DNA of 32,000 nt. Source: Candidatus Saccharimonadota bacterium. GTDB lineage: Bacteria > Patescibacteriota > Saccharimonadia > Saccharimonadales > Saccharimonadaceae. The stretch's first letter is position 1, and every line of letters begins with the position of its first letter. Of the stretch, positions 11,834-29,685 are shown piece after piece. The stretch is from contig JBAQRV010000001.1 in the NCBI GenBank assembly GCA_049296095.1, positions 180,001 through 212,000 of the forward strand. Reading direction: 5' to 3'. A model generated the notes under the pieces. That model saw only the letters and a program-made list of their open reading frames with translations, had not been told where the DNA came from and searched no databases. A program made the position numbers and the translations under genes.

Positions 11834-11835
11834 AG

Positions 11836-12233: not shown

Positions 12234-12500
12234 TTAGGAGGGCCTTGCCCTACGTAGAATCGTCATATGGCGCCCCTTAACAAGCTCTAAGGCGTATCGA
12301 TCGTGGCGAATGAGGTATTCTCGATTGATTCGCAGAACTGTCTCTTCGACGCCGTATTTGTCGAACATATCCTGTATCTCCTGCGGGTAATGGTACCCCT
12401 CAACACGATCAAAGGCGTATGGCTCGATATCGATGAATCCGGTGGGATCACGAATCTTGTGCCAGTCTTCCCAGCCCAGCTCCTCTTTCTTGATCTTCAT
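12234..12500 (-). CDS. hypothetical protein (88 aa)
   Basis: ORF only. It follows the upstream minus-strand gene after a 15-nt gap. Confidence 0.4.
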   Translation of the reverse strand: MKIKKEELGWEDWHKIRDPTGFIDIEPYAFDRVEGYHYPQEIQDMFDKYGVEETVLRINREYLIRHDRYALELVKGRHMTILRRARPS

Positions 12501-12515
12501 AGTTTGGATTATAGC

Positions 12516-13013: not shown

Positions 13014-13225
13014 TGCGAACCTCCTTGGAATAAAAAAGGACAACCTATCTCTAGGCTGTCTAGGTCAGCAACAGATTTGCATCCATTGTTTTCGAGAATA
13101 AGTTGCCCCTTCTCGGATACAAATAAAAAACTGATGCTGAAACCTAGACAAGGGTATTATAGCTTACTGATAAATTCTTAGCAAAAAGCAGTTATTTAAG
13201 TAGTTTTGCTATATAATACAATCAA

Positions 13226-14662: not shown

Positions 14663-14679
14663 TATTCTTGTCTTAAGGT

Positions 14680-16257: not shown

Positions 16258-16259
16258 CG

Positions 16260-16937
16260 TTAAATTGACCTTACTTTGTATACTTTTTTGTTTAATAAGT
16301 GCGGTTCAAAGCGAAAAGCGTTATGAAGAGCTAAATCTCTTCCGCATGGTAAATCAATAAAAAATCCTTTTTTGTATTTATATTCATTAGCCTCAACTAA
16401 AGTGAGTAGTTTCACAAGATCATATAACCTTGATTCTTTTAGATGATTGGTACTTTTCTTTGCTTCAATAACAATATAATTATCAGTTGTTCCTCGCTTA
16501 TGTACGATAATGTCGGGGTATATTGTTTTCAAAAGTTCGCCACCATCTCGTAACCTTAAAACAAACGACACAAGATCAAATTCTTCATCATAAACTAAAT
16601 TTTCTGGATCAAGCAGCTGATTGCGAAGATAATCTACGTCATCAAGCGTAATATCTTCGTGTGCAAGAATATCAAGATTCAGACTCTTCTTGTTAAAACT
16701 TTTAGACAGATCGAGCAAACTGGCCATTCTGTGTAAAAAATCAAAGGGACTAATCGTAATGCTTTTTGGACCCGACAAGTTACGATTGAACTCACAGTCG
16801 ACATGCCACTCTGGGTACATTCTTTGAAGGTGCTCAGCGAGTTTGTGTGTAATTGAACGCTCACTCACATCTTCCCGCAGTAAGTAAGCATCGTGTTTCA
16901 CGAGCTTTTTGAGCGAGGAGTTCAAGCTTTTCTTCAT
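16260..16937 (-). CDS. PD-(D/E)xK superfamily nuclease (restriction-endonuclease-like)
   Basis: SERSITHKLAEHLQRMYPEWHVDCEFNR followed by IYPDIIVHKRGTTDNYIVIEAKK (PD...ExK core). I prefer the start at M22 (16937), which has a TATAAT box 10 nt upstream on the minus strand. Confidence 0.7.
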   Translation of the reverse strand: MKKSLNSSLKKLVKHDAYLLREDVSERSITHKLAEHLQRMYPEWHVDCEFNRNLSGPKSITISPFDFLHRMASLLDLSKSFNKKSLNLDILAHEDITLDDVDYLRNQLLDPENLVYDEEFDLVSFVLRLRDGGELLKTIYPDIIVHKRGTTDNYIVIEAKKSTNHLKESRLYDLVKLLTLVEANEYKYKKGFFIDLPCGRDLALHNAFRFEPHLLNKKVYKVRSI

Positions 16938-16989
16938 GTTAAGGTTTATTATATAGACTTTGGAGAATATTAGAGTATTGTTGTCCTTG

Positions 16990-18252
16990 ATGGACCTCAA
17001 ATACGCCCTCTACGCACGCAAATCCACCGAGTCGGACGAACGACAGGCGATGAGCATTGATTCACAGGTCAAAGAGATGATGGCGGTAGCGGAACGAGAG
17101 GGCATTACCGTCCAAGCCATCAAGCGAGAAAGTCATTCAGCAAAGCAATCGGCCACCCGGCCGATTTTTCTTGAGCTGGTCGAAGATCTTCGGACAGGGA
17201 AGTACGACGCGTTGCTGACCTGGGCACCGGATCGACTGTCGCGCAATGCGGGAGACCTCGGAGCGCTGGTGGATCTTATGGACGCCGGCAAGCTTCAGGA
17301 GATCCGAACCTACGGGCAAAGCTTTCGCAATAACCCGAATGAGAAGTTCCTGCTCATGATCCTCTGTTCACAGGCAAAGTTAGAGAATGACAACAAAGGA
17401 ATCACCATTAAGCGCGGTATGAGGGCTCGTGCGGCGCTTGGATGGCGTCCAGGCAATATTCCCATCGGATACCTCAATAGATCGCTAAATGGACGCAAGG
17501 ACATCGTTATCGATCCGGAGCGAGCTGAGATTATCAAAGAGATTTTTGAACGAGTGGCCGTACAAAAGCACTCGGGAAGGCAAGTGAAGCGGTGGCTAGA
17601 TGAAATGGATTTTAGATCGAAGCGGGGGAGCCTACTGTCGCTCAGCCAGGTATACAATATCCTTAGCAATAACTTCTACTTCGGAGAGTTCGAATACCCG
17701 AAAGGTGGCGAGCTCAGAATCGGAACGCACCAACCCCTCGTCACGAAAGAAACGTTCTTAGCTGCGAGGCGAACCATCGATGAGCAGAGAGTAAACCGAA
17801 CCGAATGGGGCTCACGGGTGTTACCTTACCGAAAAGTCTTCGTCTGCGGAGCGTGCGGTAACCATATGACCGTCGAGCAACAAGAAAGATATATCTACTA
17901 CCGATGCTCCGGCTATACCAAGGAAAAGGGAAGGTGCGACAATCCATCGCTGAGCTACGAAGAAATCGTCAGGCAAACTATCACCAGTGCCAACAAAGGT
18001 GTCATTAAAAGAACTTCATTCATCCAAACTTTTAATATGCTCATAGACGAGCACTACAGGGTAACCGTTTCGATAATGGAGAAGAAGGGGATACAACACA
18101 GCTCGAACACGCGGCTTCGTGACTATATAAATTACGTGTTCACCGTCGGAAGCATCGAACAGCAGGAAGAGGTATTCAGGAACCTTCTCGTAACCCCGGC
18201 AATCACGAATAAGAAGATCATTTTTATAAAGGTAGTCAGTATGGACACCTAG
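16990..18252 (+). CDS. large serine recombinase (resolvase/invertase N-terminal domain + recombinase domain + zinc ribbon)
   Basis: YALYARKSTESDERQAMSIDSQ (catalytic Ser context), LLTWAPDRLSRN, and a Cys cluster CGACGNHM...YYRCSGY...RCDN. I prefer the start at MDLKY (16990). Divergent from the nuclease gene with a 52-nt spacer. Confidence 0.8.
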   Translation: MDLKYALYARKSTESDERQAMSIDSQVKEMMAVAEREGITVQAIKRESHSAKQSATRPIFLELVEDLRTGKYDALLTWAPDRLSRNAGDLGALVDLMDAGKLQEIRTYGQSFRNNPNEKFLLMILCSQAKLENDNKGITIKRGMRARAALGWRPGNIPIGYLNRSLNGRKDIVIDPERAEIIKEIFERVAVQKHSGRQVKRWLDEMDFRSKRGSLLSLSQVYNILSNNFYFGEFEYPKGGELRIGTHQPLVTKETFLAARRTIDEQRVNRTEWGSRVLPYRKVFVCGACGNHMTVEQQERYIYYRCSGYTKEKGRCDNPSLSYEEIVRQTITSANKGVIKRTSFIQTFNMLIDEHYRVTVSIMEKKGIQHSSNTRLRDYINYVFTVGSIEQQEEVFRNLLVTPAITNKKIIFIKVVSMDT

Positions 18253-18269
18253 CGGTTTTACACATTTAC

Positions 18270-18298
18270 TTGACGATAATACCCCCAGGGGGTATTAT
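18270..18298 (+). promoter_or_regulatory. promoter with embedded CsoR-type operator palindrome
   Basis: TTGACG (18270-18275), 17-nt spacer, TATTAT (18293-18298). The spacer and -10 form the palindrome ATAATACCCCCAGGGGGTATTAT, which resembles known GC-core CsoR operators. The csoR ATG lies 6 nt after the -10. Confidence 0.7.
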
Positions 18299-18304
18299 CA
18301 AAGT

Positions 18305-18574
18305 ATGAGAGAAGATATAAAAACACGGGCGGTACATCGTTTAAAAATTGTCGAAGGTCAGATTCGCGGTCTACAGAAAATGGTCGAAGATGATAAGTAC
18401 TGTATCGACATTATCACTCAGGCGTCAGCAATAAAAGAAGCGTTATCGAGTATTGAAGATATGTTATTAGAAAACCATTTGAGTACTCATGTCATTCACC
18501 AGATAAGAAGTGGTAACGAGGCGCAAGCAACCGATGAGATCTTGAAAGTATACAAACTAAAGCGGAAAAAGTAA
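18305..18574 (+). CDS. csoR: CsoR/RcnR-family metal-sensing transcriptional repressor
   Basis: RLKIVEGQIRGLQKMVEDDKYCIDIITQASAIKEAL is the canonical DUF156/CsoR pattern. 89 aa. Confidence 0.85.
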   Translation: MREDIKTRAVHRLKIVEGQIRGLQKMVEDDKYCIDIITQASAIKEALSSIEDMLLENHLSTHVIHQIRSGNEAQATDEILKVYKLKRKK

Positions 18575-18595
18575 TGAGGGATTTAGGGGGATTTT

Positions 18596-20836
18596 ATGAC
18601 TAAATACGTATGTCCAATGCACTCAGATGTTACCAGTGACAAGCCCGGGGCATGTTCAAAATGCAACATGGATTTAGCACCGATTGATGATACAGAAGAA
18701 AAGCTGCTCGATCATCATAGTCATGAGAGCGGACATCGCGATAACAAGGCATTTCAATCAGATACGCGGTACGCTTGCCCCATGCACCCTGATGTAAGTT
18801 CGAACAAGCCAGGCATATGTCCAAAATGTCACATGGCTTTAGAAAAGACGAAATTGCAACCACTAAACGAATACGGTCATGAAAAACACGCAGGCCATAG
18901 TCCTAATATGTTCAAAAAAAAGTTTTGGCTGAGTCTACTCCTAACTATACCTACGCTGCTATTCTCGCATACCGTTCAGAGCTGGCTTGGTTTTGAGCTA
19001 ATATTCCCCGGTAGTCAGTACGTCCCTGCTATTTTCGGAACAATTATCTTTTTCTATGGCGGCTTAGTGTTCCTAAAAGGAGCCCGCGGCGAGCTTGCGG
19101 CTAAACGGCCCGGTATGATGACTCTGATTTCGATGGCGATTACCGTTGCGTTTATCTACAGCACCCTCGTAACATTCAGGCTCGTTAGTGGTATGGACTT
19201 CTGGTGGGAGCTCGCCACATTAGTAACGATCATGCTACTCGGCCACTGGCTGGAAATGGCATCAGTAGAAAGCGCACAAGGTGCATTAAAGGAGCTAGCG
19301 AAGCTACTGCCCGATGAGGCAGAGTTACTTGAACACGATAAAAGCCGTACTGTCTCCGTAAGCCAACTAAAAGTTGGTGATATAATACTCGTTCGCCCTG
19401 GGGCCCAAGTGCCTGTAGACGGAATCGTCACAAAGGGCGAATCAGAAATTAATGAGTCAATGCTCACGGGCGAATCGAAACCAGTAAAAAAAGTGGTTGG
19501 GGCCGATGTCATTGGTGGCACGATTAACACAAACGGTGCTCTCACCATCGAAGTGGCGAAGGTAGGTAGCAATACGGCACTAGCTGGCATCATGAAGCTA
19601 GTTGAAGATGCCCAGACAAGCAAGTCGAAAACACAAGAACTTGCAGACAGAGCAGCCTTTTATCTTACTTTTATTGCACTTGGTGCTGCTCTGCTCACAT
19701 GGGTAGGATGGTGGCTTGCTGGAGCATCCTCTGGATTTATTTTTGAACGAGTCGTGACGGTATTGGTGATTGCTTGTCCGCACGCTCTCGGCTTAGCGAT
19801 TCCGCTTGTGACGGCTATATCTACGACACTCGCAGCTAAGAATGGCCTGCTCGTGCGTGAGCGGATAGCACTTGAGTCAGCCCGCAATATCGATGTCGTG
19901 CTGTTTGATAAAACAGGAACACTCACAAAGGGCGAGCAGGGCGTCGTCGATGTTATCACTAAAAACAAAAGCCTCACCCTCAGCCTTGCTGCCGCACTTG
20001 AGCGTGAGTCAGAGCATCCGATTGCAAAGGCAATTTTCCAATATGCATACAGTCAAAATGTGCCAGAAACCCACATCACTGACTTTACGGCACTCTCTGG
20101 TCGCGGTGTACGAGCTAAGGTGAGTGGAAAAAGCGTCTATATCGGCGGACCAAGACTACTCGAAGAGCTGAACATTAAACTAGACAATGAGTTACAAAAA
20201 GCCACCGACAAATCTTCAACCGAGGGAAAAACTGTCGTGTTCGTCATCAAGGATAAGGCGGTACTTGGTGCTATCATGCTTGCCGATGTTATTCGTGAAG
20301 AATCAAAAGAAGCCGTTGCGACTCTTCACCATATGGGCAAGCGCGTCGCTATGTTGACGGGTGATAATAAGGGCGTGGCGGCATGGGTAGCTGGTGAGCT
20401 TGGCATTAAAGAATACTTCGCGGAAGTATTGCCGGAGCATAAAGCTGAGACGGTTAAGAAATTACAGGCTGACGGTAGCAGTGTAGCAATGGTAGGTGAT
20501 GGTGTGAACGATGCACCAGCATTGACACAAGCTAATATTGGAATTGCTATCGGCGCGGGCACGGATGTAGCGATTGAGTCTGCTGGAATCGTGCTGGCGA
20601 GTAGTGATCCGCGTGGTGTGGCCAAAATTGTAACGCTCTCAAAGCATGCCTATAGTAAGATGTTCCAAAACTTAGCCTGGGCAACAGGCTACAATGCTTT
20701 GGCCATTCCATTGGCTGCTGGAGTTACCTCGGCGTTAGGATTCGTTCTTTCACCAGCATTAGGTGCTGTCCTAATGTCGCTCTCGACGATTATTGTCGCT
20801 ATTAATGCACAGCTACTGAGACGAATAAGATTATAA
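18596..20836 (+). CDS. copB: copper-translocating P1B-type ATPase (CPH motif, CopB-like) with two N-terminal CPMH...C..C metal-binding modules
   Basis: DKTGTLT, GDGVNDAP, TGES and transmembrane CPH (VIACPHALGLA). The N-terminus has two repeats: YVCPMHSDVTSDKPGACSKCNMDL and YACPMHPDVSSNKPGICPKCHMAL. Confidence 0.9.
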   Translation: MTKYVCPMHSDVTSDKPGACSKCNMDLAPIDDTEEKLLDHHSHESGHRDNKAFQSDTRYACPMHPDVSSNKPGICPKCHMALEKTKLQPLNEYGHEKHAGHSPNMFKKKFWLSLLLTIPTLLFSHTVQSWLGFELIFPGSQYVPAIFGTIIFFYGGLVFLKGARGELAAKRPGMMTLISMAITVAFIYSTLVTFRLVSGMDFWWELATLVTIMLLGHWLEMASVESAQGALKELAKLLPDEAELLEHDKSRTVSVSQLKVGDIILVRPGAQVPVDGIVTKGESEINESMLTGESKPVKKVVGADVIGGTINTNGALTIEVAKVGSNTALAGIMKLVEDAQTSKSKTQELADRAAFYLTFIALGAALLTWVGWWLAGASSGFIFERVVTVLVIACPHALGLAIPLVTAISTTLAAKNGLLVRERIALESARNIDVVLFDKTGTLTKGEQGVVDVITKNKSLTLSLAAALERESEHPIAKAIFQYAYSQNVPETHITDFTALSGRGVRAKVSGKSVYIGGPRLLEELNIKLDNELQKATDKSSTEGKTVVFVIKDKAVLGAIMLADVIREESKEAVATLHHMGKRVAMLTGDNKGVAAWVAGELGIKEYFAEVLPEHKAETVKKLQADGSSVAMVGDGVNDAPALTQANIGIAIGAGTDVAIESAGIVLASSDPRGVAKIVTLSKHAYSKMFQNLAWATGYNALAIPLAAGVTSALGFVLSPALGAVLMSLSTIIVAINAQLLRRIRL

Positions 20837-20844
20837 GGAGGCGT

Positions 20845-21780
20845 ATGCACAACGAACACGAACATCATCATGATACAGAGACAGTTGATATACCAGCAGA
20901 CCGAAGGGCGATTTGTCCTGTAACAGGAGATGTCATCGATACGGCGGTTGCTGATAAGCTCGGACATTTCAGGGACGTGGATGACAAACGAATCTATTTC
21001 TGTTGCGCTACGTGCGTACAACTATTCGATAAATCCCCCGAACAATATACAGACCATCACCTTGGCCACGAACATCACCATCATATTCCAACAACAGGGA
21101 TACTACGTTTGAAGGAAAAAGAACATCTGATAGATAACGTCTGGGCCTTTCGTTTCACTGCTGATCAGCAGGTATTGTGGACTCCGGGACAATTTATCCG
21201 CGTTGAAATCCCTCACGATAATCCCGACAAAGAAGGCACAAAACGATGGTTTACCATCTCATCAACGCCGCATGACGGCTTTATTCAAATCACCACTCGT
21301 GTTACCAAAACGACATTCAAGCAAGCATTAGCTACCCTTGAAGTCGGAGACGATGTGCAACTCATCGAGCGACCAGACGGTGATTTTGTCTGGCAAGAAA
21401 GTGATAAGCCCCTTGTATTTGTTGCGGGCGGCATCGGCATCACCCCTTTTTATAGTATGTTAAAAGCACGCGGTCATAGTGGACAACCAGTGTCAGCGAC
21501 ACTTATCTATAGTGGTCGAACTGATGATTTGCCATTTAAGGCAGAGTTCGACGAAGCAAGTAAGCGTCATCCAGAGTTTACGGTGTACTATGTCATTGGT
21601 GAACCGCTGGCTGCTGATAAACTTACCGAGCTCGTGCCAGACCTTAATTCATCACAAGTCTATATTTCAGGTCCAGAGCCAATGGTAGAGGCAATCGGCA
21701 AGCAGTTAAAAAAGAATGGGATTACTGACGACTCTCTTCATCAGGACTTCTTCCCCCATTACAGCGAAGAGACTTACTAG
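20845..21780 (+). CDS. His-rich + YHS-domain fusion to an FNR-type FAD/NAD(P)-binding oxidoreductase
   Basis: N-terminal HNEHEHHHD, a YHS-like CPVTGDVID...YFCCATCVQLF, a second His run HLGHEHHHH, then RWFTISSTP (RxYS-type FAD motif) and GGIGITPF (NAD(P) motif). Confidence 0.7.
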   Translation: MHNEHEHHHDTETVDIPADRRAICPVTGDVIDTAVADKLGHFRDVDDKRIYFCCATCVQLFDKSPEQYTDHHLGHEHHHHIPTTGILRLKEKEHLIDNVWAFRFTADQQVLWTPGQFIRVEIPHDNPDKEGTKRWFTISSTPHDGFIQITTRVTKTTFKQALATLEVGDDVQLIERPDGDFVWQESDKPLVFVAGGIGITPFYSMLKARGHSGQPVSATLIYSGRTDDLPFKAEFDEASKRHPEFTVYYVIGEPLAADKLTELVPDLNSSQVYISGPEPMVEAIGKQLKKNGITDDSLHQDFFPHYSEETY

Positions 21781-21819
21781 AAATATGACTCTTTGTATAA
21801 ATTACGGTAAAATAGAGGT

Positions 21820-22194
21820 ATGAAACGAGTTTTTCACGGGGTCATTTCCGTATTTATTCTTACAGTTCTTAGTGCGCTGTCGTTAGGTATACATGCAGCT
21901 GCCGTGCAAACGATGAGCATGGGACACTCAATGGGCGGCGTCTCTCATCAGGCGAGTTCGTCTAGTTGTTTTACGTCCTGCATGACAGCAACTGTCCGTA
22001 AAGACGAAATCCTCAAGGAAACCAATAAAGACGAGGATGACAAGCCGCAGCCTCCGTTTTATGTCCAATTTCAGGCTTCTTCGCTCTTAGCTCTCAAGGA
22101 AGCTCATAATCAAGAAACCAGGGTTGCTATAGAAAAAGAACCGCCTCCTAGGGCGACACCCGCCTACATCAGCTTGGGCGTCTTTCGCGCTTGA
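21820..22194 (+). CDS. signal-anchored hypothetical protein with a Met/His-rich segment
   Basis: N-terminal hydrophobic segment followed by MSMGHSMGGVSHQ. Located inside the copper cluster. Confidence 0.45.
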   Translation: MKRVFHGVISVFILTVLSALSLGIHAAAVQTMSMGHSMGGVSHQASSSSCFTSCMTATVRKDEILKETNKDEDDKPQPPFYVQFQASSLLALKEAHNQETRVAIEKEPPPRATPAYISLGVFRA

Positions 22195-22241
22195 GATTAG
22201 CTACTTACGAATATCGTTAAATAGCTAATTTAGGAGTACCC

Positions 22242-22904
22242 ATGAACAACAAGAAATTATTTACAATCATTGCCGTTGTGCTTGTACTAGCAATTGCTGG
22301 CGCCGCACTATACTACGGCCTGCGAGGTAATACGGATAACATGTCTGGTATGAATATGGACGGTTCTACAAACAATAACTCGCTTGTTGACACCAATAGT
22401 GACACGTACAAACAATATGCAGCCATGAGCGGCGAGACCTATGATCGTAACTTTATAGCAAATATGATCGCCCATCACCAAGGCGCGGTTGATATGGCAA
22501 AATTGGCTCTTACGAACGCCAAGCACCAAGAGCTAAAAGATATGGCAAACGATATCATCTCGGCTCAGGAGGCAGAGATTGCAGAGATGACATCATGGCA
22601 AAAAGACTGGGGATACCCATCGACTAGTTCTGACAACATGATGGATCATGGTGCGATGGGGATGATGGATGATATGGCTAACATGACTACTGAGCTTGAG
22701 GGCAAGACGGGCGATGAATTTGACAAAGCCTTTATAGAGCAGATGATCATGCATCACCAATCGGCTATTGATATGGCTGCACCAGGCGAGCAGAACGCCC
22801 AACATCAGGAAGTAAAGGATCTCACGAAAGCGATTGTTGCTGCGCAAACAAAAGAAATCCAGCAAATGAAACAGTGGCAACAAGAGTGGGGTTATGAAAA
22901 TTAG
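22242..22904 (+). CDS. DUF305-family protein (copy 1)
   Basis: N-terminal TM/signal and two repeats of the DUF305 pattern (FIANMIAHHQGAVDMA, FIEQMIMHHQSAIDMA). AGGAG SD upstream. Confidence 0.8.
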   Translation: MNNKKLFTIIAVVLVLAIAGAALYYGLRGNTDNMSGMNMDGSTNNNSLVDTNSDTYKQYAAMSGETYDRNFIANMIAHHQGAVDMAKLALTNAKHQELKDMANDIISAQEAEIAEMTSWQKDWGYPSTSSDNMMDHGAMGMMDDMANMTTELEGKTGDEFDKAFIEQMIMHHQSAIDMAAPGEQNAQHQEVKDLTKAIVAAQTKEIQQMKQWQQEWGYEN

Positions 22905-23412
22905 AACATTTCCTATTGTACTCGCAGTCATCGCGGTTGGGTTCACAGGCACTATCGTGGCAGTAAAATTGAACGGGCCTCCAGAACCACCACGTCCAGG
23001 TACCGAGCAGAGCGATAATGGTCGTGAGCACGTTGACAGTAAAGAGTATGGTGGTGATCAACCGCCAACCTCTGGTCCTCATGCTAGCCCACTTGCGTGG
23101 GGTGTGTACGGTACCGAAGTCCGTGATGATCAGGTAATCCATAATATGGAGCACGGCGGAATATACGTGTCGTATAGGCCGGATCTACCTCAAAACGAGA
23201 TAGCAAAACTGCAAGCTCTGCTGTCTGAACCCTACTCTAATCCCGAGTTTAAACCAACCAAAATAGTACTTGCACCACGAACTGCAAATGCATCACCAAT
23301 CGAGCTGAGTTCATGGCAAAGAAACGAAAAACTACAGACGTATGATCAAGCAAAGGTCGAGGAATATATAAAGAGAAATCTGGGTAAAAGTCCAGAGCCA
23401 CTTGCGCGCTAG
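22894..23412 (+). CDS. DUF3105-family protein
   Basis: TM anchor, then PPTSGPH ... HNMEHGGIYVSY, which is characteristic of DUF3105. Overlaps the upstream stop by 11 nt. Confidence 0.7.
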   Translation: MKIRTFPIVLAVIAVGFTGTIVAVKLNGPPEPPRPGTEQSDNGREHVDSKEYGGDQPPTSGPHASPLAWGVYGTEVRDDQVIHNMEHGGIYVSYRPDLPQNEIAKLQALLSEPYSNPEFKPTKIVLAPRTANASPIELSSWQRNEKLQTYDQAKVEEYIKRNLGKSPEPLAR

Positions 23413-23452
23413 GCAAGATTATAATTAATCAGAAAGTAGGATAAAATATAGT

Positions 23453-24124
23453 ATGAGAAAAAAGCATAGGAATAGAAATAATAACAAGCTGCTCATAGGA
23501 GGTATTGCCATACTCACTATAGCTGCTGCGGTTATCTGGTATTTTGCATTTTTTTCTGTCAAACCTGAGGCGACAGTATCAAGCAATACAGATAGTGTGA
23601 ATACGAGTGATGAAGAAGCTAATAGCAGTAATAAATTCGCTAACTTAAAAGGTGATGCATTCGACGAAGCTTATATAGCTGACATGCTGGCGCATAATGA
23701 AGGCGCACTTAGTATGGCCGAACAAGCCGGACCCGTCGTAGCACACGAAGAAATCCTCACGCTGACCAGCAATATCCTACAGACGCAGGGTATGGAAATA
23801 GTACAAATGAAGGAGTGGCAGAAAGTGTGGGGGTATAAAGAAACGATGAGCGGAGGCCATATGAGCCACGGCAGTGCTGGTATGGATACGGGCGGTGATA
23901 TGGTCGAAATGATGAATAAGTTGAAGGGTTTAGAGGGAGAGGCATACGACAAGGAGTTCTTAAAACAAATGACTATTCATCATGAGCAGGCCATTGAGAT
24001 GTCGCGGTATGCTAATACCAATGCAAAGCACCAAGAGATCAAAGACCTTGCTAAAAACATCATTGAAGCACAGACAGCAGAAATCAATCAGATGAAACAG
24101 TGGCAGCAAGAGTGGGGATATTAA
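23453..24124 (+). CDS. DUF305-family protein (copy 2)
   Basis: Same two-repeat architecture (YIADMLAHNEGALSMA, FLKQMTIHHEQAIEMS). The C-terminal QMKQWQQEWGY is shared with copy 1. Confidence 0.8.
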   Translation: MRKKHRNRNNNKLLIGGIAILTIAAAVIWYFAFFSVKPEATVSSNTDSVNTSDEEANSSNKFANLKGDAFDEAYIADMLAHNEGALSMAEQAGPVVAHEEILTLTSNILQTQGMEIVQMKEWQKVWGYKETMSGGHMSHGSAGMDTGGDMVEMMNKLKGLEGEAYDKEFLKQMTIHHEQAIEMSRYANTNAKHQEIKDLAKNIIEAQTAEINQMKQWQQEWGY

Positions 24125-24783
24125 CTAGCATCTTTTTTTCTTGAGGGTGGAATGTTAAAGTCGCTCATTACCTGAAGTATAAGACCCGGTATAAGAATAA
24201 TGCCAAGGAACCACCACCAGACAGCAAAATAGGCAGTATTAAGACTCGTACCAACCGTAAGGCTATGGACGAAGATCGCCAGCATTGCTAGCGCCTGCAG
24301 GAGGCCCACAAACGGCCATACACCGAAATTAATAAGTTTACGGCGAAAAGGTTTTAAAACTTCGTAGAGCAGAAAGGATGTAAGGGCAGCTACGGCTAAG
24401 CCAATTGCCCATGCACGAAGCGGACCAACGTACGTGATGTAACTCTCCGGCGGTAGTAAGTTCGTGTCGAGAAAGCGCTGAACAAGAAAGAGAGTGGGGT
24501 GCATCAATATGAGCAATAGCGCAATCCGTCCTATCCAAGTGCTATATTGCACCTTGAAGAGACCCGTTTTATTTATCAATGCTGCTGTATATTGAGACCA
24601 TATTGCCACAAAAGCAAGTGTTCCTAGATAGGGGAAAAGTTCATACGTTGAACTGATAATACCGTCAGATGCAAAGAACTGTAACAACACTGTCGTAATT
24701 GAAGTAAACCCAAACAGGATCCAGATCGTGAATTGCTTTAAAGACAAAGTCGCCACATAACAAGTATACTTAAAAAGGAGCAT
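24121..24783 (-). CDS. polytopic membrane protein with intramembrane histidines (possible b-type haem / ferric-reductase-like TM protein)
   Basis: About six hydrophobic helices, with His residues inside helices (LILMHPTLF, IFVHSLTV). The start is uncertain: the longest ORF (to 24804) would overlap the divergent cyt-b5 gene start. Confidence 0.45.
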   Translation of the reverse strand: MLLFKYTCYVATLSLKQFTIWILFGFTSITTVLLQFFASDGIISSTYELFPYLGTLAFVAIWSQYTAALINKTGLFKVQYSTWIGRIALLLILMHPTLFLVQRFLDTNLLPPESYITYVGPLRAWAIGLAVAALTSFLLYEVLKPFRRKLINFGVWPFVGLLQALAMLAIFVHSLTVGTSLNTAYFAVWWWFLGIILIPGLILQVMSDFNIPPSRKKDAS

Positions 24784-24788
24784 AAGAA

Positions 24789-25184
24789 ATGAAAAAACGT
24801 ACACTAGCCATAATAATTATCGGTGTGTTAGTAATTATTATCGGATTGGGTATTTGGGCTATTGTCAGTAAGCAATCACAACCAAATTCTAATACTAAGA
24901 CAGAGCAGCCAACAGGCAGCTGGACAGCGGATGAAGTAGCCCAGCACTCTTCAAAGAGTGATTGCTGGACAATTATCGCCGACAGTGTTTATAACTTAAC
25001 CACATTTATCAATCGTCACCCTGGAGGTGATGAAATCCTCCGAGCATGTGGAACTGATGCAACGATGCTATTCACCTCTCGCCAAACAAATGATGGTCAA
25101 CCTATCGGCTCAGGCTCCCCGCACAGCCAAACCGCCTATGAACAACTTGCTGAATTCAAAATTGGCACACTCTCGAAAGAATAA
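24789..25184 (+). CDS. membrane-anchored cytochrome b5-like haem-binding domain protein
   Basis: AAGGAG SD and an N-terminal TM helix. The core motif is WTADEVAQHSSKSDCWTIIADSVYNLTTFINRHPGGDEIL (the HPGG motif of cyt b5). Confidence 0.75.
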   Translation: MKKRTLAIIIIGVLVIIIGLGIWAIVSKQSQPNSNTKTEQPTGSWTADEVAQHSSKSDCWTIIADSVYNLTTFINRHPGGDEILRACGTDATMLFTSRQTNDGQPIGSGSPHSQTAYEQLAEFKIGTLSKE

Positions 25185-25283
25185 TCGAAAACTACTGACG
25201 AGTTTTGGAGACCTAAACACTTAACTATCCTAACTTCACTTTCCGCCATACGATTATCAGATAAAGAATGAGTGTCCATTATA

Positions 25284-25344
25284 GGTTAGTACATAGGTCT
25301 CCAAAACCTAGGATCGTGGTTCGATTCCACGTGCCCCTGCCAAG
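25284..25344 (+). pseudogene. 5'-truncated tRNA-Trp copy (right-hand direct repeat of the island)
   Basis: Matches tRNA-Trp from the D-loop (GGTTAGTAC) to CCAAG, 57/61 identical. There is no AGGGGCA 5' acceptor strand or 5' D-stem upstream, so no cloverleaf can form. Confidence 0.8.
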
Positions 25345-25361
25345 CTTAAGCATTATGAAAA

Positions 25362-25384
25362 AGTCTCCGATTCGGAGGCTTTTT
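25362..25384 (+). terminator. intrinsic terminator, member of the GTCTCC...GGAGGC hairpin family (T1)
   Basis: AGTCTCCG-att-CGGAGGCT followed by TTTT. The T-run runs directly into an extended -10 (TGtTATGAT). Confidence 0.7.
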
Positions 25385-25399
25385 GTTATGATTATACTG

Positions 25400-25903
25400 A
25401 TGAAAATATTTCTCACCGGCGAACCTCATAGCGGAAAATCTACTCTTATTAATAAAATACTCTCACATTTTGATGACAAGATTGGTTTTGTGACAAACGA
25501 AGTCTTAGAAAATGGAGAACGAAAAGGTTTTGAGCTGACTTCATCAATAGGTGTTAAGGCCATGTTTGCAAGTACGGAATACACTTCCGCCATTCGTGTC
25601 TCAAAGTACGGTATTGAGATTAGTATTTTAGACAAGTTTCTAGAAGGCCTTCCCCTAATCAATCAAAGTGCTCTCCTATATATCGATGAAGTGGGACAGA
25701 TGCAACTGCACTCAGATACTTTTTCTAAAATCGTCGATGATTATATTTCTGCTCCAAATAACTTTATTGGAACATTGAGTAAAGTGTATGACCACGAGCT
25801 AATACAAAAGCTTAGGCAGAATTCTGAAATAGAAGTAATTGAAGTCACACCAGAAAACAGAGACGTACTAGAAAACGTGATAAGTTCGAAGCTCATCCAC
25901 TAG
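25400..25903 (+). CDS. small P-loop NTPase (THEP1/NTPase_1-like)
   Basis: MKIFLTGEPHSGKSTLINKIL (Walker A) and LLYIDEVGQMQL (Walker B), ~167 aa. The upstream part of the tracked ORF is translation through the tRNA remnant and terminator. Confidence 0.7.
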   Translation: MKIFLTGEPHSGKSTLINKILSHFDDKIGFVTNEVLENGERKGFELTSSIGVKAMFASTEYTSAIRVSKYGIEISILDKFLEGLPLINQSALLYIDEVGQMQLHSDTFSKIVDDYISAPNNFIGTLSKVYDHELIQKLRQNSEIEVIEVTPENRDVLENVISSKLIH

Positions 25904-25911
25904 GGGCTGCC
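25882..25911 (+). repeat. 30-nt box copy 1 (AAGTTCGAAGCTCATCCACTAGGGGCTGCC)
   Basis: Forms the last codons (SSKLIH*) of the NTPase gene plus 9 nt of 3' flank. Related copies lie at 26411, 27573 and 28454. Confidence 0.7.
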
Positions 25912-25932
25912 AAGTATAGATATTAATGAGAA

Positions 25933-25954
25933 AGTCTCCATTTCGGAGGCTTTT
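25933..25954. terminator. bidirectional intrinsic terminator (T2) of the same hairpin family
   Basis: AGTCTCC-atttc-GGAGGCT followed by TTTT. Lies between the convergent NTPase and FKBP genes. Confidence 0.7.
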
Positions 25955-25964
25955 CGTTATAGAA

Positions 25965-26354
25965 CTATTGAACCGCAATTAACTCGATATCAAATACGAG
26001 ATCGCTATTGGGAGCAATCGCCGACGAAGCTCGGCGCGAGCCATACGCCATCTCTGAAGGAATGATAAGACGACGGGTGCCGCCAACTTTCATGCCAGGA
26101 ACACCAACGGTCCATCCGTCTATTACTTGATCGAGTCCGAATGTTGCAGGATGATTTCCGTCGTGACTGCTTTCAAAAATCATGCCATCAGAGCAAAGTG
26201 CACCAGTATAATGCGCAGTGATGGTTGCATGTTCTGGAACCATATCGCCATCACCTTGGACAAGGTCTATGATTTCCAACTCAGTTACTTTATTTTTTCG
26301 AAGAGGTAAAAAATCTTGTAACAATGTTCCTTTAAGTCTGTCGTGTTTAGCCAT
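25965..26354 (-). CDS. FKBP-type peptidyl-prolyl cis-trans isomerase
   Basis: ITAHYTGAL.SDGMIFESSHD...FGLDQVIDGWTVGVPGMKVGGTRRLIIPSEMAYG...DLVFDIELIAV matches the FKBP consensus. Confidence 0.85.
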   Translation of the reverse strand: MAKHDRLKGTLLQDFLPLRKNKVTELEIIDLVQGDGDMVPEHATITAHYTGALCSDGMIFESSHDGNHPATFGLDQVIDGWTVGVPGMKVGGTRRLIIPSEMAYGSRRASSAIAPNSDLVFDIELIAVQ

Positions 26355-26410
26355 TCATCTATTATGACACGATCTTTGTTATGGTGAGACGATGAAAAAC
26401 TAGAAGCAAA

Positions 26411-26439
26411 AAGTTCTAAGTTCGCCCACTAGGGCTGCC
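26411..26439 (+). repeat. 30-nt box copy 2, apparent remnant of a gene 3' end
   Basis: AAGTTCTAAGTTCGCCCACTAGGGCTGCC. In frame it reads ...DDEKLEAKSSKFAH*, which resembles the Nudix-1 C-terminus (DDSKEILKLALKSSKFIH*) but has a stop 15 codons upstream. Confidence 0.55.
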
Positions 26440-26533
26440 GCGCAGTCGTACCCATTTACAGTATGGATACAATGTGGTATAATGAAGATATACTACCTAT
26501 TCGTTACACATTAAGGCTATATTCCACACGATT

Positions 26534-27355
26534 ATGAGAACTCTACGCAGTGGCACTACCGGTTCACAAGAAATGTTTGAATTTGATGGGCGGCTTCGCG
26601 TAAGTCGTGAATTCAGCAGTGACCAAGCTGGTCAGATGGCTATACATCGGGCGCATCGTGTTGGTGAATTTGCTCTCACGGAGGCAACTAGGGGGTTTCG
26701 TCGCAGAGTGGCCGGTCTATGGGTGCCCCATTCAGCGACTGAAAACAACGCCATCACTACTAACCCCGAGGGGTATATGAATAGGAGCGCAGAGCTTATT
26801 AAAGATAAGGTGTTCGAGAAGTACCTCAACGATAACGGTGAGTATTCTGTGGCAGAGACGAGGTTGGCGATCTGGGCCCAGTTTGCAGCTAATGGCCAGC
26901 GTAGCGCGATAGCTAATAAATACGAATCGTGGCGCGTTGATGGCAAAAATAAGGCAGTAACAATGAATCCTGGCTTCAGTACAGAAGGGTACGTCGATCG
27001 TGCCTTTGTCGAGTCAAGTCCCGTTGTCATGGGTAGTATTGCAGCCTACATGGCAGATCTAAAAAGCTATATTGGGCATCCAGATATGATGCACCATCTT
27101 AAACGAACATGGATTCAAGATGGTCACCGCCTCAAAAAAGAGGAGCACCTAGAACGAACTCAGCAATTTCTTCGTAAAGAACCTGATTGGGAATTTGACA
27201 GGTGGTTTGCAGAAAGTTACTACAATCACCGATCTCGTGCAAAATTTTGGTATGGGGTTATCCAAAAAAGCATACAAATGCGCGAAGACATCCTCGCGCA
27301 GAAACGTATTAAAGCCTGGAAAGAGGACATGGAGCGTCGCGGTTACGACGTATAG
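26534..27355 (+). CDS. hypothetical protein (273 aa)
   Basis: Long ORF with an extended -10 TGgTATAAT (26475-26483) ~50 nt upstream and terminator T3 just downstream. I recognise no motif. Confidence 0.55.
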   Translation: MRTLRSGTTGSQEMFEFDGRLRVSREFSSDQAGQMAIHRAHRVGEFALTEATRGFRRRVAGLWVPHSATENNAITTNPEGYMNRSAELIKDKVFEKYLNDNGEYSVAETRLAIWAQFAANGQRSAIANKYESWRVDGKNKAVTMNPGFSTEGYVDRAFVESSPVVMGSIAAYMADLKSYIGHPDMMHHLKRTWIQDGHRLKKEEHLERTQQFLRKEPDWEFDRWFAESYYNHRSRAKFWYGVIQKSIQMREDILAQKRIKAWKEDMERRGYDV

Positions 27356-27367
27356 GTAATGTCGAGG

Positions 27368-27390
27368 AGTCTCCAATTCGGAGGCTTTTT
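27368..27390 (+). terminator. intrinsic terminator (T3) of the same hairpin family
   Basis: AGTCTCC-aattc-GGAGGCT followed by TTTTT, running into TGtTATTAT. Confidence 0.7.
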
Positions 27391-27404
27391 GTTATTATTG
27401 ACTT

Positions 27405-27572
27405 ATGAGTCACAAGAAGCGGAATGTAAATACTCTGATTATCATTTCCTCGATAATTATCCTACTGGGCTTACTCGCAGCGGGCCTAATATATATGTGG
27501 TCACAGGGTTGCGATGCAAAGCTAGTAAATTCTGGGTACAGAACCACGCAGATTACTTCTTGTCGTGAATAA
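27405..27572 (+). CDS. possible small single-pass membrane protein (55 aa)
   Basis: Not in the ORF track (<60 aa). The ATG lies 6 nt after TATTAT (27393-27398). Translation is MSHKKRNVNTLIIISSIIILLGLLAAGLIYMW..., a basic N-terminus followed by one hydrophobic helix. Confidence 0.35.
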   Translation: MSHKKRNVNTLIIISSIIILLGLLAAGLIYMWSQGCDAKLVNSGYRTTQITSCRE

Positions 27573-27602
27573 AAGTTCGAAAGTTATTGCCTACAAACTG
27601 CC
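27573..27602 (+). repeat. 30-nt box copy 3 (diverged)
   Basis: AAGTTCGAAAGTTATTGCCTACAAACTGCC, 20/30 identical to copy 1 in an ungapped manual alignment. Same position relative to the RNA-A promoter as copy 4 has to RNA-B. Confidence 0.4.
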
Positions 27603-27650
27603 AAACCTAAGTATCATAGAGAGTCCTAGACACAAGACGAGTAGATATTA

Positions 27651-27679
27651 TTGACTTTTCATTGCACTTATGCTATTAT
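27651..27679 (+). promoter_or_regulatory. sigma70-like promoter of structured RNA A
   Basis: TTGACT (27651-27656), 17-nt spacer, TATTAT (27674-27679). Nearly identical to the RNA-B promoter. Confidence 0.65.
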
Positions 27680-27685
27680 AAATAC

Positions 27686-27929
27686 GATTGGTCTACTGGC
27701 CCGAGGGTCGTAGGTCAAGGATATAGAGGGCGGTTGCGTCCGGGGCGGGGCTTTTGAAGCCTTAAAGAACGCCGGCAATTGTCAATCTGTATCAGCGGGG
27801 TGTCCGCATCGAAGCCTGGGTTCATGCGTCTAACGGCGCTTATCCCGCAAGGGAGATAGAACACTTCGATAGCGGGCACCCCGCCCAACCCTCATCTAGC
27901 CACCCGCACGACATTGCCGGTGGCTTTTT
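27686..27929 (+). ncRNA. structured GC-rich RNA of unknown class, copy A (~244 nt)
   Basis: Has its own promoter and terminator (AGCCACC..GGTGGCT + TTTTT, 27898-27929). GC-rich relative to its flanks. Contains a GNRA-capped hairpin (CCC-GCAA-GGG, 27844-27853), a long-range helix 27803-27814/27864-27876, and outer helices GAGGGT/ACCCTC and GGGCGG/CCGCCC. No plausible ORF. End coordinates are approximate. Confidence 0.65.
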
Positions 27930-28007
27930 CTTTAGCAGTCTATAGATTCCATTAATTCGATTCTTGCTTCTTTCATAGTGCCTTGCCGAGATCATACTTA
28001 CCACAAA

Positions 28008-28030
28008 GGTCTCCGTTTGGATGCTTTTTT
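28008..28030 (+). terminator. degenerate copy (T4) of the hairpin family, fused to the Nudix-1 promoter
   Basis: GGTCTCC-gttt-GGATGC followed by TTTTTT, then TGcTATGAT (28030-28038). The stem is imperfect. Confidence 0.4.
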
Positions 28031-28046
28031 GCTATGATGAAACTAT

Positions 28047-28475
28047 ATGGATTTAAAGCTACATACACCATCAGCTGGAGGAATTGTTATCAGAGACGGT
28101 AACGTGCTTCTTATATATTCCACATCAAGAAATAGTTATGCATTTCCTAAAGGTACTATTGATGAAGGAGAGACCAAGGATATCACCGCAATCCGTGAAG
28201 TCAAAGAAGAAACAGGCTACAACGTAGAAATACTAGATTTTCTAGGCGATTATACATTTGATTTTGACTGGAAAGACGGCAATCGTTATCGTAAAACAGT
28301 TACATATTACCTTATGAATGTCGCTGACGATGAAGACCCTCACCCTATGCTGGAAGAAGGTGAGGATTTTGTGAACGTTTGGACACCTATCGACAAAGCA
28401 CATGAAGTTCTTACTTTTGATGATTCAAAAGAAATACTCAAGTTAGCACTTAAAAGTTCGAAGTTCATCCACTAA
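28047..28475 (+). CDS. Nudix hydrolase 1
   Basis: Nudix box GTIDEGETKDITAIREVKEETGY (GX5EX7REUXEEXGU). The ATG lies 8 nt after TATGAT (28033-28038). Confidence 0.85.
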   Translation: MDLKLHTPSAGGIVIRDGNVLLIYSTSRNSYAFPKGTIDEGETKDITAIREVKEETGYNVEILDFLGDYTFDFDWKDGNRYRKTVTYYLMNVADDEDPHPMLEEGEDFVNVWTPIDKAHEVLTFDDSKEILKLALKSSKFIH

Positions 28476-28484
28476 GGGGCTGCC
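28454..28484 (+). repeat. 30-nt box copy 4
   Basis: AAGTTCGAAGTTCATCCACTAAGGGGCTGCC. Forms the last codons (SSKFIH*) of Nudix-1 plus 3' flank. Confidence 0.7.
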
Positions 28485-28556
28485 GGGTGTAAGCAATTTA
28501 CAAATAAGGCTTTCCGTCTAGAGATCTACAAAATAATGTACTCTATCTCGCTAATA

Positions 28557-28585
28557 TTGACTTTCTATTGTACTTATGCTATTAT
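28557..28585 (+). promoter_or_regulatory. sigma70-like promoter of structured RNA B
   Basis: TTGACT (28557-28562), 17-nt spacer, TATTAT (28580-28585). Confidence 0.65.
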
Positions 28586-28591
28586 AAGCAT

Positions 28592-28834
28592 GATTGGTCT
28601 ATCGACTTGAGGGTCGTAGGTCAAGGATATAGTAGGCGGTTGCGTCCGAGGCGGGGCTTTTGAAGCCTTAAAGAACGCCGGCAATTGCCAATCTGTATCA
28701 GCGGGGTGTCCGCATCGAAGTCTGGGTTCATGCGTCTGACGACGCTTATCCCGTAAGGGAGATAGAACACTTCGATAGCGGGCATCCCGCCCAACCCTCA
28801 TTAGCCACCCGCATGACAGTGTCGGTGGCTTTTT
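28592..28834 (+). ncRNA. structured GC-rich RNA of unknown class, copy B (~243 nt)
   Basis: About 18 differences from copy A across the whole transcription unit by manual alignment. Changes fall in loops (GCAA to GTAA tetraloop) or preserve pairing (U.G to U-A in the hairpin at 28732-28745). The terminator T-run abuts the Nudix-2 promoter. The 100-aa minus-strand ORF here is judged spurious. Confidence 0.65.
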
Positions 28835-28848
28835 GCTATACTTCAAGA

Positions 28849-29265
28849 ATGCAACAAGGCCAATATCCGAACGCATTCTACCGAGTCTCGGTAAAGGCGG
28901 TTATCGTCAATGAGAAGAATGAGATATTTACCGTCCACGAAGGTGAGGACTGGACACTTCCAGGCGGAGGCTTAGACCACGGAGAAAAGCCGTTAACAGC
29001 ACTAAAACGAGAGCTTTACGAAGAAGCGTTTATTACTTCAGACTTTAAGGCGGTATTGATAGGAACAGAGTCATTTTATGTTGATAGTAAAGATGCGATG
29101 GCGTTTTGGTTAATCTACCGCCTGGACATGACCGAACCAAATTTTACCTACAAGGCGGGCGAAGACGCTGATGAGGTTACATTTCGCAACCCCAGTGACT
29201 TCAAAGATAGTGATTCATTATTTGAGCGACTTATTTATAAGTACGGTTCTAGGATCACCCTGTAA
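28849..29265 (+). CDS. Nudix hydrolase 2 (only distantly related to Nudix 1)
   Basis: Nudix box GGGLDHGEKPLTALKRELYEEAFI. I prefer the start at MQQGQ (28849), 6 nt after TGcTATACT (28834-28842). The upstream tracked codons lie in the RNA-B terminator. Confidence 0.8.
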   Translation: MQQGQYPNAFYRVSVKAVIVNEKNEIFTVHEGEDWTLPGGGLDHGEKPLTALKRELYEEAFITSDFKAVLIGTESFYVDSKDAMAFWLIYRLDMTEPNFTYKAGEDADEVTFRNPSDFKDSDSLFERLIYKYGSRITL

Positions 29266-29331
29266 AAGTACCTACCTAGGGTAGATCGAATCAAAACGAC
29301 TCATCTAGCCTGTTTTTGTTATGATGGAACC

Positions 29332-29685
29332 ATGAGTAGAATGCCGTACAGTTTTTCTAACGTATCAGAACGATACAAAAATAAATATTTATCAAAGCCG
29401 ATAATATTTTTAAAATACCTCGGCCAAGCAGGTTTCATAACTTTCGCCATATGTTTCACTATCGTAAAAATGAACGAAGGCGTGACTGGTGGATCATTGT
29501 TCCTCGATACGGTAACTTTGATTGCTGGATATAGTATTTCAGTTGGCATCGTATGTCTTATTGTTGTCGGTTTGAACGTAATGGGTTTAAAGAGTACTTT
29601 TGTAAAGATATTCTTGTATATGTTTTTACCCGCCGTTATTATCACTGCCATTCTTACGGTGATATTTATCCTACCTAGGCAATAA
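29332..29685 (+). CDS. small polytopic membrane protein
   Basis: Three or four hydrophobic helices. The ATG lies 6 nt after TGtTATGAT (29317-29325). I prefer it to the overlapping minus-strand ORF, which lacks start signals. Confidence 0.5.
   Translation: MSRMPYSFSNVSERYKNKYLSKPIIFLKYLGQAGFITFAICFTIVKMNEGVTGGSLFLDTVTLIAGYSISVGIVCLIVVGLNVMGLKSTFVKIFLYMFLPAVIITAILTVIFILPRQ

Follow-up and report, generated by a model that had tools for sequence, protein, structure and literature searches.

A duplicated candidate gene for a structured small RNA beside two Nudix genes in a tRNA-Trp cassette array of a Candidatus Saccharimonadota bacterium

Downstream of a tRNA-Trp gene on contig JBAQRV010000001.1 of a Candidatus Saccharimonadota bacterium, two similar ~244-nt segments, here called RNA-A and RNA-B, stand on either side of a gene for a Nudix hydrolase (Nudix A), and the second of them is followed by the gene for another (Nudix B). 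We describe these segments, the surrounding genes and the evidence that they are two copies of a gene for a structured RNA. The window, by which we mean the whole 32,000-nt stretch that was analysed, has only one long direct repeat, and it is this pair. Feature coordinates are collected in Table 1.

Two copies of one predicted transcription unit

The alignment of RNA-A with RNA-B falls into two blocks separated by a single 1-nt indel (27646-27895 against 28552-28801 at 92% identity, and 27897-27929 against 28802-28834 at 91%). It sets in ~5 nt 5' of the -35 hexamer, TTGACT, and ends on the last T of the T5 run of the terminator, and the sequences flanking the two copies cannot be aligned with each other. 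In the RNA body there are 18 differences (15 transitions, two transversions and one indel), with seven more in the 40-nt promoter segment. This agrees with the initial annotation of this DNA, which had described two near-identical copies with about 18 differences, alike from the -35 box to the terminator T-run and unrelated in their flanks. The 3' ends given here are those of the T-runs, and the 5' ends (27686 and 28592) were placed by inference 7 nt past the -10 box. Two other explanations of the repeat were ruled out: an attachment-site (att) duplication made by integration, since an entire gene, promoter included, is repeated and the copies have diverged by 8%, and the template and variable repeats of a diversity-generating retroelement (DGR), since most of the differences are C/T or G/A transitions and they are not adenine-specific.

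The RNA promoter scores 10 of 12, plus the TG of an extended -10 element. Its -35, TG and -10 elements are identical between the copies, whereas the remaining 26 promoter positions include 7 differences (27%); divergence in the RNA body is 7.4%, a 3.6-fold difference from those non-hexamer positions (Fisher p = 0.005). Three copy-B changes fall in the terminator, where they retain or add pairs (G-C to G.U, and C/U to U.G). The non-coding sequence of each copy is thus enclosed by its own promoter and a Rho-independent terminator, as in a stand-alone small RNA (sRNA) gene.

Both copies are predicted to fold stably. On the plus strand, none of 200 dinucleotide shuffles was as stable as either copy (for minimum free energies, MFE, see Table 1), and the antisense strands are weaker by ~17 kcal/mol (-95.1 kcal/mol for RNA-A and -93.1 kcal/mol for RNA-B), an asymmetry that is expected where G.U pairs matter and that agrees with the orientation of promoter and terminator. 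An RNAalifold consensus of both copies comprises 79 pairs, none of which is broken in either; its predicted order is a 5' hairpin, then helix P1 closing over the P2 and P3 domains, then the terminator. The two loops of the P3 junction read UAAC and GCAA in RNA-A, UGAC and GUAA in RNA-B. The copies are richer in GC than the window (0.45) and the genes next to them (0.38-0.44). Much of the detail that had been noted by eye reappears in this analysis: the GC-rich composition in an AT-rich context, the tetraloop change from GCAA to GTAA (27847-27850 against 28753-28756), the hairpin GCGTC-TAAC-GGCGC, in which one change converts U.G to U-A and the other lies in the loop, and the helix GAGGGT/ACCCTC, which is part of the consensus fold. 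A further helix that had been proposed, GGGCGG/CCGCCC, is absent from the predicted fold, where CCCCGC pairs instead with GCGGGG of P3.

The placement of the differences between the copies is consistent with constraint on this fold. Six of the 18 lie at paired columns, against 65% of positions paired, and all six preserve the pair (binomial p = 0.0066, in a test biased towards significance, because the structure it uses was itself predicted from these two sequences). When the test was repeated on the MFE structure of copy A alone, copy B was found to break two pairs against ~5.5 by random mutation (P = 0.036), and among random mutants of copy A only 2.4% reach the stability of copy B. The consensus fold shows no double-sided changes and six single-sided, pair-preserving ones, with a permutation P of ~0.02-0.04 that comes from two paralogues only. 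A transcribed, structure-constrained RNA is the best reading of both copies, and we consider it likely.

The sense strand of the RNA body holds no ATG-start open reading frame (ORF) of at least 20 aa; its frames are stop-rich, with only short TTG-start ORFs. This frame survey of both copies upholds the earlier view that no credible ORF is present. Searches with known families gave a similarly empty picture, as expected from the initial annotation, in which the RNA could not be matched to known classes. Rfam 15 at its gathering thresholds returned three tRNAs and nothing else from the whole window (ARAGORN found four tRNAs and no tmRNA there). With E up to 10, the region 27560-28900 and each copy alone gave chance matches of 7-21 bits against thresholds of 35-100; the models tested took in RNase P, SRP, tmRNA, 6S, T-box, ykkC and NAD+ riboswitches, raiA and HEARO. 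BLASTN of the RNA against phage and plasmid collections returned no matches. Exact-pattern scans gave chance matches in coding DNA only among viral contigs, seven chance matches among metagenome contigs with GAAGCCTTAAAGAACGCCGG, and four among genome contigs with GTCGTAGGTCAAGGATAT, the source genome itself not being returned. These scans demand exact 18-20-mers and would miss homologues below ~90% identity, so that they are a weak negative, meaning that no close relative is present in those collections and not that homologues are absent. As far as the searches reach, the RNA so far appears confined to one species.

Two kinds of RNA associated with particular neighbours do not fit. No reverse transcriptase domain was found among the window ORFs scanned against Pfam, the neighbours being Nudix, small membrane ORFs and a hydrolase, and the adjacent reverse transcriptase of a retron non-coding RNA (msr-msd) is therefore missing. 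No internal tandem repeats were found in the RNA; with Nudix neighbours and no tandem short repeats, the locus does not have the make-up of a type III toxin-antitoxin system.

The Nudix genes and the array around them

Each Nudix gene has a TG-extended -10 element 6-8 nt before its ATG and neither has a Shine-Dalgarno sequence. The same pattern, TGnTAnnnT 6-9 nt before the ATG, is found at the TPR, 478-aa, NTPase, 55-aa, 117-aa, hydrolase and iron permease genes of the window. Nudix A, Nudix B and the genes like them are, on this sequence pattern, predicted to be leaderless transcription units. The initial annotation had recorded an extended -10 box for each of the Nudix genes, which favours the stand-alone sRNA that it had offered as an option, and had noted that the two proteins share little, in keeping with their 26% identity. 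Proteins identical to Nudix A and Nudix B are encoded in two other assemblies.

It had also taken a conserved RNA with differing partners as a sign of a functional link, and this did not hold up. Orthologues of Nudix A (68-82% identity; contigs L002-L020, from P0002, P0003, P0014, P0020 and P0026) and of Nudix B (79-84% identity; contigs L035-L042, from P0058, P0059, P0061, P0062 and P0063) were collected, and their contigs were searched by nhmmer and by covariance models of P3 (R1) and of P1/P2 (R2). In about ten distinct contexts the RNA was not found beside any Nudix A or Nudix B orthologue, so it is not conserved with either Nudix partner. Furthermore, since the two copies lie on either side of a single gene within an array of shuffled cassettes, the two Nudix adjacencies are not independent events. 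Duplex energies between the RNA and the Nudix A or Nudix B gene starts are unremarkable, and antisense regulation of the neighbouring gene starts was ruled out on this ground.

The junctions between RNA and Nudix units can be followed in the relatives. They share the Nudix B unit, GGC-TTTTT-GTTATAMT-TCWAGA-ATGCAACA, and have a generic hairpin, GTCTCC..GGAGGC, in front of it; TTTTTGTTATAMTTCWAGAATGCAACA of the Nudix B promoter also precedes the RNA-less orthologues in L038-L042. Here the RNA-B terminator hairpin replaces the generic hairpin, and the junction falls exactly within the shared T-run. The generic module (28001-28035, family D3) persists 5' of Nudix A, with RNA-A ~70 nt further upstream, and is the most decayed of the four module copies in the window; the Nudix A junction module also precedes RNA-less Nudix A orthologues. 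An in-frame ATG inside the RNA-B terminator (28813-28848) would lengthen Nudix B to 150 aa, and similar gene calls of 149-153 aa exist for the orthologues P0058, P0061, P0063 and P0065; the extra residues in these calls (..AFCY(N/T)SRM..) come from translating the conserved T-run and -10 promoter, almost certainly an artefact of annotation.

The RNA promoter, too, can be traced. Its sequence TTGACTTTnnATTnnACTTATGCTAT, spacer included, recurs 65 nt 3' of the Nudix A orthologue in L009-L015, and in L009 and L011 it precedes an ~85-nt 5' untranslated region and the gene for a 112-aa predicted membrane protein, which has no homologue in the window. As the promoter sequence is shared with these contigs and the payload is another, the RNA-B promoter is orthologous and the RNA body is not. 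One conserved promoter is seen to serve different downstream payloads, the RNA here and the membrane protein gene in the closest Nudix A relatives.

Both RNA copies lie in a strain-variable array. The tRNA-Trp gene is duplicated in the window (61 nt repeated at 93%, family D4), and between its two copies lies a 13.5-kb segment (11834-25267) that is absent from the relatives L002 and L016 and looks, from its sequence, like an integrative island at tRNA-Trp. Its cargo includes a D12 adenine methyltransferase, a trypsin-like peptidase, a large serine recombinase (16960-18252) and a copper-resistance block with a CsoR-like repressor, the ATPase CopA, and DUF305, DUF4142 and DUF3105 proteins. In relatives, Pyr_redox and tRNA-Trp are followed by zero to three small genes and, after these, by the Nudix A orthologue. 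Downstream of the second tRNA-Trp copy (25337-29340; also in L002, L009-L020 and L035-L042), single-gene units vary from strain to strain, and gene order differs in every relative examined (next to tRNA-Trp: L002, L009, L016, L035 and L041). A unit starts with the hairpin GTCTCC..GGAGGC, a T-run and a TG-extended -10 element 6-9 nt before the ATG. Several genes are then followed by a motif, CTGCCAAGCATAAGC, like the tRNA-Trp 3' end and the sequence after it, which recurs after successive genes in relatives, and at the end of many units stands a tRNA-Trp 3'-end copy together with bases that follow it (..TCCACTAG GGGCTGCCAAGCATAAGC). In the NTPase, Nudix A and many Nudix orthologues the C-terminus is ...L(I/V)H-stop, for which the DNA reads TCCACTAG-GGGCTGCCAAG, and the tRNA 3' end has TTCCACGTGCCCCTGCCAAG; unrelated proteins thus take their final codons, L-(I/V)-H-stop, from the tRNA-Trp 3'-end copy. 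Nucleotide-housecleaning enzymes are frequent in the array cargo (Nudix, NTPase_1, CYTH, HD and AAA_18/AAA_33 kinases). Read in this setting, the RNA gene may be a cassette of its own that was duplicated locally, its adjacency to Nudix genes reflecting array shuffling. We found no description of such a cassette array in Saccharibacteria in the literature that we searched.

Other genes of the region were also considered. Upstream of RNA-A lies a 273-aa gene with no Pfam, PADLOC or NCBIfam match; a foreign origin of the RNA together with this gene was ruled out, since the GC content of the gene (0.478) is ordinary for the genome. The RNA/Nudix block is flanked by two small leaderless ORFs (27405-27572 and 29332-29685), whose hydrophobic products, 55 and 117 aa long, match no family. 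In L005 (6931-8529; also in L006-L008) a 308-aa reverse transcriptase (RVT_1) is encoded ~1.2 kb downstream of the Nudix A orthologue, and its gene is preceded by an unannotated gap of ~670 nt; it could be a retron, DGR or Abi-type reverse transcriptase with a non-coding RNA. L003 (1-1047) holds a CD-NTase and Cap15-like pair (cyclic oligonucleotide-based antiphage signalling system, CBASS) ~5 kb upstream of its Nudix A orthologue, which suggests that the variable region also gathers defence genes. Finally, a 741-nt 'intergenic' gap in L035 (3637-4376) comprises an uncalled HNH-endonuclease-like ORF, tRNA-Trp and a GC-rich stretch that ends in a second tRNA 3'-end copy, GTGCCCCTGCCA; it is probably the scar of another integration event.

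Table 1. Features of the RNA/Nudix locus in the window, with related sequences on contigs of relatives
Feature	Positions	Strand	Remarks
tRNA-Trp, first copy	11759-11833		found by repeat and tRNA scan
tRNA-Trp, second copy	25268-25342	+	right end of the 13.5-kb island; start of the cassette array with the RNA genes
35-nt terminator/promoter module, four copies	25355-25389, 25926-25960, 27361-27395, 28001-28035		AAAGTCTCCnnTTCGGAGGCTTTTTGTTAT; 66-100% identical
att-like motif 5' of RNA-A	27598-27612	+	CTGCCAAACCTAAGT; like the tRNA-Trp 3' end
RNA-A promoter	27651-27679	+	TTGACT, 17-nt spacer, TG-extended TATTAT; hexamers and TG the same in copy B
RNA-A, ~244 nt	27686-27929	+	MFE -111.9 kcal/mol, z -4.42; GC 0.58; no Rfam match
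Predicted core fold, RNA-A	27703-27893	+	P1 (GAGGGT 27703-27708 / ACCCTC 27888-27893) encloses P2 and P3
Predicted P2 hairpin domain, RNA-A	27720-27793	+	74 nt, internal loops
Predicted P3 domain, RNA-A	27795-27884	+	90 nt: 20-bp helix, junction, UAAC-loop hairpin, GCAA tetraloop hairpin
RNA-A intrinsic terminator	27898-27929	+	stem AGCCACC/GGTGGCT, inner 3-bp stem, T5 at 27925-27929
Cassette junction 5' of Nudix A	28001-28046	+	decayed hairpin GGTCTCC..GGATGC, T-run, TG-extended TATGAT (28033-28038); ATG at 28047
Nudix A, 142 aa	28047-28475	+	between the two RNA copies; Pfam NUDIX 2.1e-19
att-like motif 5' of RNA-B	28480-28494	+	CTGCCGGGTGTAAGC; weaker, degenerate counterpart
RNA-B promoter	28557-28585	+	TTGACT, 17-nt spacer, TATTAT with TG; orthologous sequence in L009-L015
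RNA-B, ~243 nt	28592-28834	+	MFE -110.4 kcal/mol, z -6.00; GC 0.55
RNA-B terminator	28803-28830; T-run 28830-28834	+	hairpin and U5
Nudix B predicted leaderless promoter	28834-28851	+	TG 28834-28835, TATACT 28837-28842, ATG 28849; fused to the RNA-B T-run
Nudix B, 138 aa	28849-29265	+	NUDIX domain; 26% identical to Nudix A
RNA-promoter-like sequence in relatives	L009 2250-2275; L010 2716-2741; L011 1877-1902; L013 966-991; L015 1139-1164		

Weighing the readings

The best reading of these observations, which we hold to be somewhat better than evenly balanced, is that of a lineage-restricted, stand-alone structured sRNA gene in two paralogous copies, trans-acting and not a riboswitch. Each copy would be transcribed from a near-consensus sigma-70 promoter and stopped by its own intrinsic terminator, giving a ~244-nt RNA composed of a 5' hairpin, P1, P2, P3 with its GNRA-capped three-way junction, and the terminator. 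The RNA cassette would sit in the strain-variable array downstream of tRNA-Trp, where a local duplication would have put it on both sides of Nudix A, one junction arising when recombination took place in the GGC-TTTTT-G(C/T)TAT terminator/promoter module, which the Nudix B cassette also has. Nudix A and Nudix B would be expressed from their own leaderless extended -10 promoters, shielded by the RNA terminator from the strong RNA promoter. Most likely the RNA would act in trans, by binding a protein or in some other structure-dependent way, with no cis control of the Nudix genes. Transcription, the exact RNA ends, the cassette status and the trans action are what we infer for this RNA.

Several points weigh against this reading, in addition to the bias of the paired-column test given above. 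The predicted structure is one drawn from thermodynamics and from 18 differences between two paralogues, with no covariation, as no RNA homologues were found in any collection searched. Gene conversion between the copies could in part account for the low divergence of the body. Complementarity to the local gene starts is unremarkable, and no trans target or partner protein was identified. That the two copies each lie 5' of a Nudix gene remains a coincidence, and a functional link is thinkable.

The Nudix adjacency is at the heart of two alternatives. A cis-regulatory leader, that is a riboswitch or attenuator in which a nucleotide-derived ligand is sensed and the terminator controls read-through into the Nudix gene, would explain why a promoter, a ~210-nt structured domain, a terminator and a Nudix gene follow one another twice and why the copy-B terminator is just 14 nt from the ATG; pairings between G-rich and C-rich segments offer alternative folds, and Nudix-associated riboswitches (ykkC subtype 2c) are known. 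We nonetheless think such a leader improbable. The antiterminator-like alternative CCGGCAAT/ATTGCCGG of the initial annotation does exist as a pairing but is energetically poor: forcing CCGGCAAU onto the terminator 3' strand costs +10.3 kcal/mol in RNA-A and +23.0 kcal/mol in RNA-B, the copy-B substitutions weaken this pairing and preserve the terminator, and removing the terminator leaves the folds of P2 and P3 unchanged. Its suggestion of a ligand-sensing leader is likewise at odds with the Nudix B promoter module and leaderless start, which are kept in RNA-less relatives. A read-through transcript would offer no Shine-Dalgarno sequence, copy A is ~117 nt and a second terminator-like module away from Nudix A, and no Rfam riboswitch model matches. 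The locus thus has no accessible antiterminator, downstream genes with promoters of their own and orthologues that are RNA-less, none of which points to a riboswitch or attenuator. The RNA might instead be a partner of the Nudix proteins, either a substrate that loses a 5' cap (NAD, Np4A) or triphosphate to them or an RNA antitoxin or regulator in a type III layout. Besides the twofold adjacency, this would suit the order of promoter, RNA, terminator and protein gene, which is like that of type III toxin-antitoxin loci, and the weak, sub-threshold similarity of both Nudix proteins to the RppH and YtkD RNA pyrophosphohydrolase models. However, the NCBIfam scores are far under the cut-offs, PADLOC matches a generic Nudix only, tandem short repeats of the ToxI kind are missing, and one local duplication explains both adjacencies. 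Every relative examined has the same Nudix proteins without the RNA, which is accordingly not needed and whose absence brings no toxicity. A partnership of this kind appears to us quite doubtful.

The remaining alternatives deny that the RNA matters or that it is an RNA at all. The repeat could be non-functional or selfish DNA, such as a decaying foreign RNA gene, the end of a mobile element or a DNA-level structure for cassette recombination, its RNA features being incidental or relict. We regard this as unlikely, if somewhat less so than either Nudix-centred alternative. Within the reach of the searches the element is confined to a single species, its surroundings are a cassette array prone to recombination, next to the 13.5-kb island with its serine recombinase, and one of its junctions coincides exactly with the shared T-run module. 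Yet the -35, TG and -10 elements and the terminator are intact in both copies while neighbouring promoter positions are 27% diverged, substitutions are biased towards keeping the fold, the G.U pairs of the transcribed strand make a ~17 kcal/mol strand asymmetry, and no terminal inverted repeats, target-site duplication or transposase were found. Most improbable of all, to the point of being nearly negligible, is a protein-coding or small-peptide gene taken for an RNA. It could appeal to two antisense frames, a 57-aa TTG-start ORF open in both copies and a 100-aa ORF open in copy B only. The latter has three stops in copy A and the former shows seven amino-acid changes from ~8-9 nucleotide differences; the 100-aa ORF gave low-complexity matches only against 1.84 billion representatives, and all stop-free six-frame segments, with both copies joined as one query, gave no matches against 5.8 billion clusters at E up to 1. 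The source annotation, too, has no gene at the RNA copies.

A bolder version of the stand-alone sRNA would make it a new class of ornate, ~240-nt, cassette-borne RNA in tRNA-Trp-anchored arrays of Saccharibacteria, working with the nucleotide-housecleaning enzymes of those arrays; it could, for example, be a capped or 5'-modified RNA handled by Nudix, or the RNA part of a defence or counter-defence module. We give this little credence.

Relation to known systems and significance

The comparison with type III toxin-antitoxin systems (ToxIN-like), which consist of a promoter, a non-coding RNA, a terminator and a protein gene, ends with that order: the RNA described here is one complex 244-nt fold and not tandem ~36-nt repeats, and the protein is an ordinary Nudix hydrolase that occurs in relatives without any RNA. 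6S RNA is the housekeeping RNA most often missed by Rfam in divergent phyla. The size range, the strong promoter and the terminator are alike, and 6S RNA sometimes has two paralogues per genome; unlike a rod with a central bubble, however, a branched P1/P2/P3 structure is predicted here, and the element is absent from related genomes at the locus and lies in an accessory cassette array.

A resemblance is also seen to the orphan structured non-coding RNAs of bacteria, such as the raiA motif RNA, which were found as GC-rich stretches between genes, each with a promoter and a terminator of its own (PMC10861870, PMC11109978). The present RNA shares with them a length of ~200-250 nt, multiple helices, GNRA loops, a GC-rich composition in an AT-richer genome, the stand-alone arrangement, the lack of an ORF and a function that is not deducible from the neighbours, but whereas those classes rest on many covarying homologues, here there are two paralogues in one species and no Rfam match. 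Nudix-associated riboswitches (ykkC subtype 2c, ADP/CDP) have been reviewed (PMC7266159). They too place a structured RNA with an intrinsic terminator 5' of a Nudix hydrolase gene; the RNA here is twice the size and matches no riboswitch model in sequence or structure, and it differs further in its downstream genes with predicted leaderless promoters, in its RNA-less orthologues and in having no competitive antiterminator. The genomic context, for its part, is reminiscent of tycheposons, which are tandem small integrative elements at tRNA genes (10.1101/2020.12.28.424599), and of integron cassettes. Single-gene units bounded by tRNA 3'-end repeats occur in variable order next to the tRNA, and a larger, recombinase-bearing island occupies the same tRNA; in contrast to those systems, the small cassettes have no identified integrase of their own, they are bounded by short, degenerate motifs, and mobility is a presumption from the arrangement.

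The RNA would thus be a so far single-species addition to the structured sRNAs of bacteria, and the appealing link to Nudix is not supported. Saccharibacteria and other bacteria of the Candidate Phyla Radiation (CPR) have small genomes with few protein regulators, and to our knowledge very few non-housekeeping RNAs are known in them. If the reading as a stand-alone sRNA is true, an accessory RNA with strong expression and an elaborate fold would be a useful point of entry. Of broader interest than the RNA itself may be the genome architecture around it, in which leaderless cassettes of one gene each have tRNA-Trp 3'-end copies as their boundaries.

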